A stretch of DNA of 64,000 nt from an uncultured candidatus Brocadiaceae bacterium (GTDB lineage: Bacteria > Planctomycetota > UBA11346), in the NCBI GenBank assembly GCA_964612995.1, contig CAZTGE010000001.1:15985-79984 (forward strand), written 5' to 3'. Position 1 is the first letter of the stretch. Every line of letters begins with the position of its first letter. Below the pieces are notes generated by a model. That model did no database searches and was not told the DNA's origin. It saw only the letters and a list, made by a program, of their open reading frames with translations. Made by a program: the position numbers and the translations under genes. Positions 58,871 to 63,144 of this stretch are shown piece after piece.

Positions 58871-59389
58871 GTGAACGTGCTGCTCGGCATCACCGGTTGC
58901 ATCGCTGCCTACAAGACGCCGGAGCTCGTCCGGCGCCTGCGCGAGCGCGGCCACAGCGTCCGCTGCATCCTCACCGCCAACGCCTCCCGGCTCGTGACCG
59001 AGCACGCGCTGGCCACGGTCAGTGGTCATCCGGTCGCCAGCGACATGTGGTCGGCCGACGCGCGCATTGCGCACATCGACCGGTCCCAGTGGTGCGACTG
59101 CCTGCTGGTGGCCCCGGCCACCGCCAACGCGCTGGCCAAGTTCGCCCTCGGCCTGGCCGACGATCTGTTGTCGACCACCTTCCTCGCGCTACCGCCGGAC
59201 AAGCGCGTGCACATCGCTCCGGCGATGAACACCGTCATGTGGCACAAACCGATCGTGCAACAGCATGTCGCCACGCTGGAAGCCGCGGGCTGCGAACGGC
59301 TCGGCCCGGTCGCTGGCGAGCTGGCCTGCGGCGACGCCGGCATCGGCGCGATGCTCGCGCCGGAGCAGATCGCCGCCGCCCTCGACTGA
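58871..59389 (+). CDS. coaC: phosphopantothenoylcysteine decarboxylase (stand-alone CoaC flavoprotein)
   Basis: GTG start. ITGCIAAYKTPELVRRL, LLVAPATANALAKFALGLADDLL, PAMNTVMW and LACGDAGIGAM match the CoaC half of Dfp. Confidence 0.8.
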   Translation: MNVLLGITGCIAAYKTPELVRRLRERGHSVRCILTANASRLVTEHALATVSGHPVASDMWSADARIAHIDRSQWCDCLLVAPATANALAKFALGLADDLLSTTFLALPPDKRVHIAPAMNTVMWHKPIVQQHVATLEAAGCERLGPVAGELACGDAGIGAMLAPEQIAAALD

Positions 59390-59395
59390 GACCGA

Positions 59396-60166
59396 TCAGC
59401 CCGGCGGCGTATCGCCCCCGGCCGCGACCCGCGCCGCGAGGCTGCGATGGCGGCCCGAAGCCGGCGCTTCGGAACGGACCTCGGCGTTGCGCCAGCGACA
59501 GGGCAGTCCGCGCGCGTCGAGCTCGCGCAGCAGACGCTCACGCTCTTCGGGGCTGTAGGGGCGGGCGCTGGCGGCGAAGACCGGATCCAAGGCAGCGTGG
59601 CTGCGAAAGTCCTGGAGCACCCATGGCAGGCGTCCGGCGACCAACTCGCCGATCGCCACCACCGCCTCGCCGGTAAGCAGCGGGTGGACCACCGTGGTCC
59701 GGCATTCGCCCGCCACGCCGGCCGCGACCACCAGTGCCAGACTGCGCCGCAGGGCCGCGGGGTCGCCGCCGCCGAGTCGCTCCGGGTAGACTTCCGGCGG
59801 GGCCTTGAGATCGAGCGCGATGTAGTCGGCCAGACCCTCGGCGAGCACCGCGGCGAGCACCGCCGGACGCAGGCCGTTGGTGTCGAGCTTGAGCGCGAAC
59901 CCCATGGCCTTGATCCGCCGGCAGACCGCGAGCAGGTCATCCTGCAACGTCGGCTCGCCCCCGCTGAGCACCACCCCGTCGAGACGGCCGCGGCGGCGCT
60001 CGAGGAAGGCCCACACAGTCTCCTCGTCCACCCGCGCGCCGCCGCGCACCAGCTCGGGATTATGGCAATAGGGACAGCGCAGGTTGCAGCCGGCGGTGAA
60101 GATCACCGCGGCGTCACGGCCGGGGAAGTCGGCCAGGGTGAAGCGCTGCAGGCCACCGATGCGCAT
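59396..60166 (-). CDS. nrdG: anaerobic ribonucleoside-triphosphate reductase activating protein (radical SAM)
   Basis: CNLRCPYCHN cluster near the N-terminus, followed by SGGEPTLQ. Immediately downstream of nrdD. Confidence 0.85.
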   Translation of the reverse strand: MRIGGLQRFTLADFPGRDAAVIFTAGCNLRCPYCHNPELVRGGARVDEETVWAFLERRRGRLDGVVLSGGEPTLQDDLLAVCRRIKAMGFALKLDTNGLRPAVLAAVLAEGLADYIALDLKAPPEVYPERLGGGDPAALRRSLALVVAAGVAGECRTTVVHPLLTGEAVVAIGELVAGRLPWVLQDFRSHAALDPVFAASARPYSPEERERLLRELDARGLPCRWRNAEVRSEAPASGRHRSLAARVAAGGDTPPG

Positions 60167-60169
60167 GGC

Positions 60170-62257
60170 TCAGCCTTCGATGCGCGCGGTGGACCGGAGG
60201 CGGAACTCCTCCTGCTTGCCCTCGTTCCATTGCTCGACCGGTCGCAGGTAGCCGACCACGCGGGCGTAGACCTCGCAGTCGCTGCCGCAGTCGGGGCAGG
60301 TCGGCTGCTGGCCGCTGCGGTAGCCGTGCTGCGGACAGATGCTGAAGGTCGGGCTGATGGTGAAATACGGCAGGCGGTAGTTGTAACACACCTTGCGCAC
60401 GAAATTCTTCACCGCCTCGCAGTCGTCGAGTTCCTCGCCGACGAAGACATGGACCACCGTCCCGCCGGTATAGCGCGTCTGGAGGTCATCCTGGTGGTCC
60501 AGCGTCTCCCACACATCGTCGGTGTGATCGACCGGCAGCTGCGAGGAATTGGTGTAGAACGGCCGCGCCTCGGGGCCGTCGCTGCCGGCGCAGAGGATGT
60601 CCGGATACCGTTCGCGGTCCTTGAGCGCGAGACGGTAACTGGTGCCCTCGGCCGGGGTCGCCTCGAGGTTGTAGAAATGCCCGGTGCGCTCCTGATACAC
60701 GCTCAGGCGCTCGCGCATGTGATCGAGCACCCGCTTGGCGAACGCGGCACCGCGCTCATCGGCGATGCCGCACCCGAGCAGATTGCGGCAGGCCTCGTTC
60801 ATGCCCACCAGCCCGATGGTCGAGAAGTGGTTGTGCCAGTAGCTGCCGTGGCGCGACTTGACCTGGCGCAGGTAGAACCGGGCATAGGGATAGAGACTGC
60901 CCTCGGTGGTGCGCTCGAGCACCTTGCGCTTGATCTCCAGGCTCTCGGCCGCGCGGTCCATCAACCGGTCGAGCCGGCGCATGAACTGCTCCTCGCTCTG
61001 GCTGGTATAGCCGAGCCGGGGCAGGTTCATCGTCACCACCCCGATCGATCCGGTGAGCGGGTTGGAACCGAACAGGCCGCCCCCGCGCGCCTCGAGCTTG
61101 CGCATGTCCAGGCGCAGCCGGCAGCACATGCTGCGGGCGTCCTCGGGCGACATGTCCGAATGGATGAAATTGGCGAAGTAGGGCACGCCGTAACGTGCGG
61201 TGACCTTCCACAGCCACTCCAACTTGGGATCGTCCCATTCGAAGTCGCGATCGATGTTGTAGGTCGGGATCGGGAAGGTGAACACGCGCCCCTTGGCATC
61301 GCCCTCGCACATGACTTCCAGGAAGGCCCGGTTGAGCATGTTCATCTCATCCTGGAAATCGGCGTAGCAGAAATCGGTGGTGGTGCCGCCGATGATCACC
61401 GGCTCTTCGGCCAGGGTCGAGGGGCAGACGAGGTCCATGGTGAGGTTGGTGAACGGCGTCTGGAACCCGACCCGGGTGGCGACGTTGAGGTTGAACACGA
61501 ACTCCTGCAACGCCTGCTTGACCGTGGTGTAGTCGAGGTTGTCGTAGCGGATGAACGGCGCGAGATAGGTGTCGAAACTGGCGAAGGCCTGCGCGCCCGA
61601 AGCCTCGCCCTGCAGGGTGTAGAAGAAGTTGACGATCTGACCGAGTACCGCACGGAAGTGCTTGGCCGGACGTGCCTCGGCCTTGCCCGGCGCGCCCTTG
61701 AAACCGGTGACCAGCAGGTCCTTGAGGTCCCAGCCGACGCAGTAGACCGAGAGCAGGCTCAGATCGTGGATGTGCATGTCCCCCGACTTGTGCGCCTCGC
61801 GCACAGCCTTGGGGTAGATCTCGTTGAGCCAGTAGGTCTTGGTGATCTCGCTGGAGATATAGTTGTTCAGGCCCTGCAACGAGAAGGCCATGTTCGAGTT
61901 CTCGTTGACCTGCCAGTCGAGCTTCTCGAGGTAGGTGTCGATCAGTTCGGTGCCGCCGCCGCCAGCCATCTCGCGCATGCGCTCGTGCTGCTCGCGGTAG
62001 AGCACGTAGGCCCGGGCAGTGCGCTTGTAGCTCGACGCCAGCAGCACGTCCTCGACCAGGTCCTGGATCCGTTCGACCGTCGGCACGCCCTGCTTGATCA
62101 CCGCCAGAGCGACCGAGAGCACCCGGGTGGTCAGGCGCTCGGCCCGCTCCCAGTCGAGTTCGCCGGTGGCAGCACCAGCCTTGGCGATGGCAGCGGTGAT
62201 CTTGTCGGCGTCGAAAGCGACGAAGCGACCGTCGCGTTTCTGGATCAGGTCGAACAT
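60170..62257 (-). CDS. nrdD: anaerobic ribonucleoside-triphosphate reductase (class III)
   Basis: N-terminal ATP-cone-like MFDLIQKRDGRFVAFDADKI, the class III pattern throughout, C-terminal CPQHG...CPDCG zinc site and the glycyl-radical region RVVGYLRPV. Confidence 0.95.
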   Translation of the reverse strand: MFDLIQKRDGRFVAFDADKITAAIAKAGAATGELDWERAERLTTRVLSVALAVIKQGVPTVERIQDLVEDVLLASSYKRTARAYVLYREQHERMREMAGGGGTELIDTYLEKLDWQVNENSNMAFSLQGLNNYISSEITKTYWLNEIYPKAVREAHKSGDMHIHDLSLLSVYCVGWDLKDLLVTGFKGAPGKAEARPAKHFRAVLGQIVNFFYTLQGEASGAQAFASFDTYLAPFIRYDNLDYTTVKQALQEFVFNLNVATRVGFQTPFTNLTMDLVCPSTLAEEPVIIGGTTTDFCYADFQDEMNMLNRAFLEVMCEGDAKGRVFTFPIPTYNIDRDFEWDDPKLEWLWKVTARYGVPYFANFIHSDMSPEDARSMCCRLRLDMRKLEARGGGLFGSNPLTGSIGVVTMNLPRLGYTSQSEEQFMRRLDRLMDRAAESLEIKRKVLERTTEGSLYPYARFYLRQVKSRHGSYWHNHFSTIGLVGMNEACRNLLGCGIADERGAAFAKRVLDHMRERLSVYQERTGHFYNLEATPAEGTSYRLALKDRERYPDILCAGSDGPEARPFYTNSSQLPVDHTDDVWETLDHQDDLQTRYTGGTVVHVFVGEELDDCEAVKNFVRKVCYNYRLPYFTISPTFSICPQHGYRSGQQPTCPDCGSDCEVYARVVGYLRPVEQWNEGKQEEFRLRSTARIEG

Positions 62258-62359
62258 GGGAGGTCCTCGGGGGGGCAGATGGGGGGTGCGGTGACCGGCC
62301 TGCGTCCCGGCAGGCGGCCGGATGGCAGAAGGGGGGCGACTGTGACGATTAATGACGGA

Positions 62360-62410
62360 CGACTATATCTGGTATTCGCCAATTCATACGCCCACCACAT
62401 CTTGTGTAAA
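62360..62410 (-). promoter_or_regulatory. predicted nrdDG promoter (-35 TTTACA 62405-62410, 16-nt spacer, -10 TATGAA 62383-62388 on the minus strand), overlapped by two NrdR-box-like 16-mers (62360-62375 and 62392-62407) whose centres are 32 bp apart
   Basis: An AT-rich island (about 45% GC) in a 70% GC background. Box 1 ATACCAGATATAGTCG and box 2 ACACAAGATGTGGTGG (minus-strand orientation) match the NrdR consensus acaCwAtATaTwGtgt at 11/16 and 12/16 positions. Confidence 0.4.
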
Positions 62411-62514
62411 GGTCTTTTCCCAACCCTCACCTAACTGCGGTCGTCAGCATGCTTTGTTTTGCCGCCAGGCAGAGACCCAGGGCTTCGCGCTTCTCCGTTG
62501 GCCGCTGGATCGGC

Positions 62515-63144
62515 TCAGAAGCGCCCGCCGAACCCGACCGCGAACACCGGGCCGTGCTGGATCACGTCGAGATCGTAGGAACCGACCACCCCCCGGGTCT
62601 CCCAGGAGCCGCGCCATCCGGCAAGCAGGTCGAGATGCAGTTCCCGATGCAAGCCCAGACGCAGGCGCACATCGCCGCCGACGGTCCACCGGGCATTGTA
62701 GACCGAGCGGTCGACATCGTCCGACTCGACCACCCCGTCGAGCTCGTCGGGCAGGTCGAGCCCGAACACCCCCATGCCCAGCCGCGCCGAGCCGATCAGC
62801 CCCACCCGACGATGCGGCCGCAGGCCGAGGTGCAGAGCACCCTGGGCATCGAGCGCGAAGTGAAGCAGATCGTCGTCGGGGGCATGGGCCCAGTCGAACC
62901 CGGCATCCAGGCCCATGCCCCAGGCCACGAGATCGTCTCCCGACCACACCACCGTCTCGATCAGCAGCCGCGCCTGCGTCGGCCAGGTCCCCGCCCAGTG
63001 GAAGCTGCGACCATCGTCGAGGGTGTAGTCGATGTCGTAGTCGCGCCGGCCACAATCGAACAGCACACTGAAGTCGACCGACTCGCTCGCAGTGCAGCAG
63101 GTGATCGTCAGCAACAACGGCCAGAGCGCACGCATCCGGTCCAT
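62515..63144 (-). CDS. small outer-membrane beta-barrel protein (OmpW/OmpA-like 8-strand type), hypothetical
   Basis: Signal peptide MDRMRALWPLLLTITCCTASES. Alternating hydrophobic and aromatic strands. C-terminal aromatic residue F after GFGGRF. Confidence 0.5.
   Translation of the reverse strand: MDRMRALWPLLLTITCCTASESVDFSVLFDCGRRDYDIDYTLDDGRSFHWAGTWPTQARLLIETVVWSGDDLVAWGMGLDAGFDWAHAPDDDLLHFALDAQGALHLGLRPHRRVGLIGSARLGMGVFGLDLPDELDGVVESDDVDRSVYNARWTVGGDVRLRLGLHRELHLDLLAGWRGSWETRGVVGSYDLDVIQHGPVFAVGFGGRF

Follow-up and report, generated by a model that had tools for sequence, protein, structure and literature searches.

Genes and intergenic region

The window analysed here, a stretch of 64,000 nt (64 kb) from a Planctomycetota metagenome-assembled genome (MAG), has an overall GC content of 69% and carries on its reverse strand the genes of a class III ribonucleotide reductase (RNR), nrdD and nrdG (Table 1). 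The naming of these genes as nrdDG in the initial annotation was confirmed by Pfam matches and by NCBIfam matches above the respective cut-offs: the nrdD product matched the Pfam families NRDD (2e-194) and ATP-cone (2.6e-20) as well as NF006126 (1064 bits versus a cut-off of 548) and TIGR02487 (also above cut-off), and the nrdG product matched TIGR02495 (NrdG2; 182 bits versus a cut-off of 131). Since nrdG begins only 3 nt past the nrdD stop codon, nrdD and nrdG form one operon. The GC content of nrdD, calculated in 100-nt windows, was ~58–69%, slightly under the mean of the whole window. When 10 large ORFs of the window (643–1055 aa) were scanned against Pfam, none proved to be a further RNR gene.

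The gene upstream of nrdD, which runs in the same direction, encodes a protein without any Pfam or NCBIfam match; its N-terminus is hydrophobic, and its C-terminus (...GFGGRF) recalls that of outer-membrane beta-barrel proteins. An 8-bp inverted repeat, GCGCTTCT/AGAAGCGC (62487–62524), spans the stop codon of this gene with no T-run behind it. At the other end of the operon, a convergent gene 3′ of nrdG (58871–59389, forward strand) encodes a stand-alone CoaC-like flavoprotein with a phosphopantothenoylcysteine decarboxylase domain, which matched the N-terminal half of TIGR00521 at 6e-54, under the full-length cut-off.

The intergenic region between nrdD and the upstream gene is 257 bp long. 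Its central 110 bp (62340–62450) had a GC content of 47%, so that the AT-rich island noted in the initial annotation (about 45% against 70% GC) was reproduced by measurement.

Table 1. Features of the nrdDG locus and its upstream region (positions in the window; for reverse-strand elements within the intergenic region, numbers generally run in the direction of nrdD)
Feature	Position	Strand	Remarks
Upstream gene, no assigned function	62515-63135	-	206-aa protein; same direction as nrdD
-35-like hexamer TTTACA	62410..62405	-	5/6 to TTGACA; 3-nt overlap with upstream box; function inferred
Upstream box ACACAAGATGTGGTGG	62407..62392	-	12/16 to consensus; C4 = 62404, G13 = 62395
Linker GCGTATGAATTGGCGA, 16 bp	62391..62376	-	-10-like hexamer inside
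-10-like hexamer TATGAA(T)	62388..62383(2)	-	TATGAA 4/6 to TATAAT; 16-nt spacer from TTTACA
Downstream box ATACCAGATATAGTCG	62375..62360	-	11/16 to consensus; C4 = 62372, G13 = 62363
Rest of predicted leader	62258..62359	-	C-rich; predicted leader ~118 nt in all
nrdD, class III (anaerobic) ribonucleoside-triphosphate reductase	60170..62257	-	N-terminal ATP-cone
nrdG, radical-SAM activase	59396..60166	-	Pfam Radical_SAM and Fer4_12

A pair of NrdR-box-like palindromes upstream of nrdD

Every 16-mer on both strands of the 64-kb window was scored against the NrdR consensus acaCwAtATaTwGtgt. The two top-scoring 16-mers were the upstream and downstream boxes of the nrdD intergenic region, and the runners-up were two sites at 10/16; the tandem NrdR-box-like palindromes described earlier, with 11–12 of 16 positions matching, are therefore the best such sites that the window contains. 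On the nrdD strand, the whole segment reads TTTACACAAGATGTGGTGG-GCGTATGAATTGGCGA-ATACCAGATATAGTCG. The length of the linker, read directly from the sequence, places the box centres 32 bp apart, in agreement with the three-turn spacing originally proposed. The coordinates of the boxes also stood, but their numbering had to be reversed, because in the literature the promoter-distal (upstream) box is box 1. The pair lies 102–150 nt 5′ of the nrdD ATG, inside the ~500-nt distance taken as the positional criterion. Direct reading of the sequences 32 bp to either side (62424–62439 and 62328–62343) showed no match to a third, in-phase box.

The sequence rules for NrdR sites have recently been defined in a mutational and bioinformatic study (PMC13584703, 2026), in which C4, A6, A8, T9, T11 and G13 were highly conserved, C4 and G13, 8 bp apart, were critical, and A6 and T11 were important. 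Both nrdD boxes have 6/6 of these highly conserved positions, their C4-to-G13 distance is exactly 8 bp in each case, and the outer arms ACA/GT(G) match as well. Regarding the AT content between C4 and G13, natural boxes range from 0.63 to 1.0 (at least ~63%, which permits a sharp DNA bend; PMC13584703); the values here were 5/8 (62.5%) for the upstream box and 6/8 (75%) for the downstream box, with a mean of 0.69, so that the upstream box sits at the lower limit of the natural range. The canonical linker is 15–16 bp (14–17 bp tolerated), which sets the box centres about three helical turns apart, and its sequence is irrelevant (PMC13584703). Expressed as the inner distance of the published regular expression, the spacing of the nrdD pair was 22 nt (published range 20–23 nt).

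The two boxes depart from the consensus at positions 2, 5, 7, 10, 12, 15 and 16. In the published binding assays, substitutions at positions 5, 7 and 10 were tolerated, as were those at the outer positions 3 and 14, which lie near the unmutated positions 2, 15 and 16; position 12 was mutated only together with position 5 (PMC13584703). The combined substitutions A5C and A12G in both boxes decreased affinity 5–10 fold (PMC13584703). With G12 in the upstream nrdD box and C5 in the downstream one, NrdR binding at these boxes may be somewhat weaker than ideal, and the nrdDG operator may be moderate rather than maximal in strength. The upstream box shares 13 of 16 bases with the validated synthetic box ACACAACATCTAGTGG, and as many with box 1 of Streptomyces coelicolor nrdAB. 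NrdR proteins have been shown to bind boxes of other species.

Statistical distinction of the pair from chance matches

We considered whether AT-rich promoter DNA had matched two box cores at the right spacing by chance, with no NrdR acting on them. In favour of this reading, the published degenerate regular expression matched 56 times in the window, approximately the chance level, AT-rich promoter DNA raises the match rate, and an nrdR gene was not located in the ~72 kb of the MAG that could be reached (see below). On the other hand, the same expression gave exactly one correctly spaced pair in the 64 kb, and this pair is the nrdD site, exactly 5′ of the RNR operon. The strict core C.A.AT.T.G occurred 6 times in the 64 kb, and 2 of these 6 make up the nrdD pair. 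The simulated probability of a degenerate-regex pair within the 257-bp intergenic region was ~0.009, and the expected number of two sites scoring at least 11/16 with starts 30–33 bp apart was ~5e-4 when the AT island's own composition was used as the null; no such pair appeared in 100 window-sized simulations.

An independent ranking was obtained with a profile HMM trained on 20 independent box pairs 5′ of nrdD homologues, with the window left out of the training set. Its top match in the whole window was the segment 62360–62407 (E = 0.023), and beyond this it matched only the reverse complement of that site (E = 0.41) and a stretch partly overlapping the upstream box (E = 6.6). This ranking, the uniqueness of the pair and the conserved positions and matching outer arms of each box all argue against chance resemblance, which we regard as improbable. 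The 48-bp segment 62360–62407 is thus very probably an NrdR operator, predicted to lie over the candidate core promoter of nrdDG in this Planctomycetota MAG, and the initial prediction that dATP/ATP-responsive NrdR would repress the class III RNR operon is supported by features of the DNA that are typical of NrdR operators.

Candidate promoter and predicted mode of repression

The initial annotation had also placed a sigma70-like promoter at the boxes. The two hexamers, TTTACA-16-TATGAA, were recovered, and no other combination in the intergenic region comes closer to a sigma70 promoter, yet at 9/12 the match is weak, in particular in its -10 hexamer, and a stricter sigma70 consensus scan called 0 promoter sites, because TATGAA is without the conserved final T. 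The candidate promoter is therefore plausible but weak. Another -10-like hexamer, TATAGT, was found at 62367..62362, without a -35 hexamer. A perfect 8-bp palindrome, AGCATGCT, is located at 62446–62453, ~36 bp 5′ of the -35-like hexamer and at about -74 from the predicted start; it did not fit any regulator consensus tried.

The downstream box starts 6–7 nt beyond the -10-like hexamer and covers the predicted transcription start near 62375. With the upstream box over the -35 region and the downstream box over the predicted start, bound NrdR would be expected to occlude RNA polymerase, and since the alternative TATAGT lies inside the downstream box, this would hold under either promoter assignment. 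By analogy with the characterised NrdR proteins of S. coelicolor and Escherichia coli, replacement of ATP by dATP in the outer site of the ATP-cone would give rise to a tetramer, carrying both dATP and ATP, that binds the two boxes via its Zn-ribbons. The DNA would be kinked at either box, and with the -35 region and the transcription start covered, RNA polymerase would be blocked. When ATP occupies both sites, NrdR would assemble into higher oligomers unable to bind DNA, and nrdDG would be transcribed. Through the ATP-cone of NrdD and through NrdR, one nucleotide signal could act on both enzyme activity and expression.

The predicted leader

Between the downstream box and nrdD, the C-rich leader contains a Shine-Dalgarno sequence, GAGGA (62268..62264, reverse strand), 6 nt ahead of the ATG. 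A 13-nt direct repeat, CCCCCC(T/A)TCTGCC, has its two copies 50 nt apart (62336..62324 and 62286..62274), and a third C run (C7, 62275..62269) abuts the Shine-Dalgarno sequence; on the template (forward) strand these C runs correspond to runs of G6–G7. Rfam gave no match in the whole window at gathering thresholds, and, when E values up to 10 were allowed on 62150–62600, only a 13.5-bit match to sul1 at 62496–62556, outside the leader. The predicted fold of the leader was not above that of shuffled controls (z = +1.25). A riboswitch or leader RNA was accordingly rejected, as no Rfam family lies in the leader and its fold is no better than that of shuffled sequence.

There is a slim chance that the leader is an undescribed cis-regulatory element acting beyond NrdR, or that the lineage is without nrdR and the boxes are read otherwise. 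Such a leader element could be a G-quadruplex on the template strand, or a protein- or RNA-binding motif acting on nrdDG, its one positive indication being the direct repeat.

Box pairs at other nrdD loci

The comparison set consisted of 146–151 nrdD homologue loci from many phyla, for which 500 nt upstream were searched. The degenerate-regex pair was present within these 500 nt at 39 of 146 loci, compared with 5 of 141 same-length control segments inside nrdD; for the strict-core pair, the corresponding numbers were 26/146 and 0/141. The histogram of spacings at the nrdD loci peaked at 21–22 nt, which corresponds to a linker of 15–16 bp. Thus, the paired-box architecture recurs 5′ of nrdD homologues in many phyla. 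In one of the NrdD homologues (P0014, 1097 aa), the reductase is interrupted by intein/LAGLIDADG domains (Pfam PF14528 and PF14890).

As for close relatives, two contigs encoding NrdD proteins of 98% (L002) and 82% (L003) identity both end inside nrdD. No other relatives above ~70% identity were found among metagenome contigs with the N-terminal 230 aa as the query. Protein searches with the full-length sequence and with the N-terminal 140 aa gave none above 70% among the matches listed, from which the query's own cluster was also absent; among these matches, NrdD was 65–70% identical to homologues across many bacterial and archaeal phyla.

A second locus with the same phylum label was found in a MAG labelled uncultured Planctomycetia (L080), in which the pair TAACAAAATATAGTAA-15-ATACAAGATATTGTGC is located about 330–340 nt upstream of nrdD (L080 9583–9970). 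Like the window, this locus has a canonical box pair over a predicted promoter of the same gene, followed by a long leader; Rfam matched nothing in the L080 leader, and its nrdD strand has no ORF of at least 50 aa. The two loci differ in that L080 has a GC content of 48% and a perfect TTGACA-17-TATAAT promoter whose spacer is filled by the second box, whereas in the window the match to a promoter is weak, with the -35-like hexamer overlapping the upstream box and the -10-like hexamer within the linker.

Search for nrdR and the possibility of a relic operator

The organism is presumed to encode NrdR itself. The query for the search was an E. coli NrdR sequence, which was checked by its matches of 51% identity to nrdR in two metagenome contigs (L123 and L131). 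With this query, tblastn detected no nrdR in the window and 8 kb beyond it (~72 kb of the MAG), nor in the L002, L003 and L080 contigs, and a three-sequence NrdR HMM found nothing in six-frame translations of the window, the 8 kb beyond it (L001), L002 and L003. NrdR is present in 77% of bacterial genomes, ~23% being without it (PMC13584703), and its conservation throughout the PVC superphylum, Planctomycetes among them, has been reported (PMC4989314). In L123 (2550–3005), L131 (2538–2993) and a further contig, L093 (2–226), all of them low-GC metagenome contigs, nrdR lies directly 5′ of nrdD in an apparent operon; NrdR-box-like sequences 5′ of nrdR in L131 and L123 suggest autoregulation there, and L093 ends before that region.

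A lineage devoid of NrdR could nevertheless carry such boxes if nrdDG had been gained horizontally together with its control region, leaving the boxes as an unused relic. The 65–70% identity of NrdD to homologues in many phyla, suggesting frequent transfer, and the GC content of nrdD slightly under the window mean are consistent with this explanation. However, unused AT-rich palindromes should decay in a genome of 69% GC, but all 12 critical positions are intact; the reported conservation of NrdR across the PVC superphylum and the box pair kept at the second Planctomycetota-labelled locus point in the same direction. We therefore consider a relic operator decidedly improbable.

Other regulators

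The palindromes could also serve a different regulator as its operator, for example an FNR/CRP- or Rex-type sensor of oxygen or redox state that controls anaerobic genes. E. coli nrdDG is known to be under the control of FNR as well, with FNR sites, and the separate palindrome further upstream in the present intergenic region might be cited in favour of a different regulator; in contrast to E. coli nrdDG, no FNR site was detectable here. The best matches for FNR, CRP and LexA in the intergenic region reached only 5–6 of 8–10 specified positions, those for Rex, ArcA and Fur ranged from 8/14 to 10/19, all at background level, and a NarL consensus scan of the same region likewise gave background matches only. 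Moreover, half-sites oriented as aCAC...GTGt, with a C-to-G distance of 8 bp and duplicated at 32 bp, are specific to NrdR, which makes a different regulator of these boxes extremely unlikely. Even when chance resemblance, a relic operator and a different regulator are taken together, they remain unlikely compared with an operator at which NrdR would bind.

Comparison with characterised NrdR operators

With NrdR control as the preferred reading, the class III RNR operon of an uncultured, high-GC planctomycete can be annotated as a predicted target of the universal dATP/ATP-sensing repressor NrdR, and this predicted control would come on top of the allosteric ATP-cone on NrdD. The site also adds one more GC-adapted candidate to the natural NrdR operators that obey the recently defined sequence rules. 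The operator type itself has long been known, NrdR boxes 5′ of nrdDG having been described since 2005 and tens of thousands of them catalogued across GTDB; the site is a new instance of a thoroughly described control element and opens no new question.

Among the closest known counterparts are the nrdAB and nrdRJ operators of S. coelicolor (PDB 7P3F), a high-GC system that has been characterised biochemically and structurally. These operators have the same two 16-bp boxes with a linker of 15–16 bp, and the GC-adapted box sequence is shared, as seen from ACACAAGATGTGGTGG here and ACACAACATCTGGGGG and GCACAAGATGTATGCT at S. coelicolor nrdAB. The AT fractions between C4 and G13 are also similar (0.63–0.75 here, 0.63–0.71 in S. 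coelicolor). The C-to-G distance, on the other hand, is 8 bp in both boxes here but 9 bp in box 2 of S. coelicolor nrdAB, and S. coelicolor belongs to another phylum and uses these operators for RNR of class I and II, whereas the present candidate site belongs to class III.

The operon type is shared with nrdDG of E. coli, Pseudomonas aeruginosa and Listeria monocytogenes, whose boxes are AT-richer (0.75–0.94). NrdR boxes overlapping the promoter have been described for nrdDG of L. monocytogenes and others. The linker of the L. monocytogenes operator is 16 bp, as it is here; in L. monocytogenes, however, the ATG follows 13 bp beyond box 2, whereas in the present operon a C-rich leader of ~100 nt lies in between.
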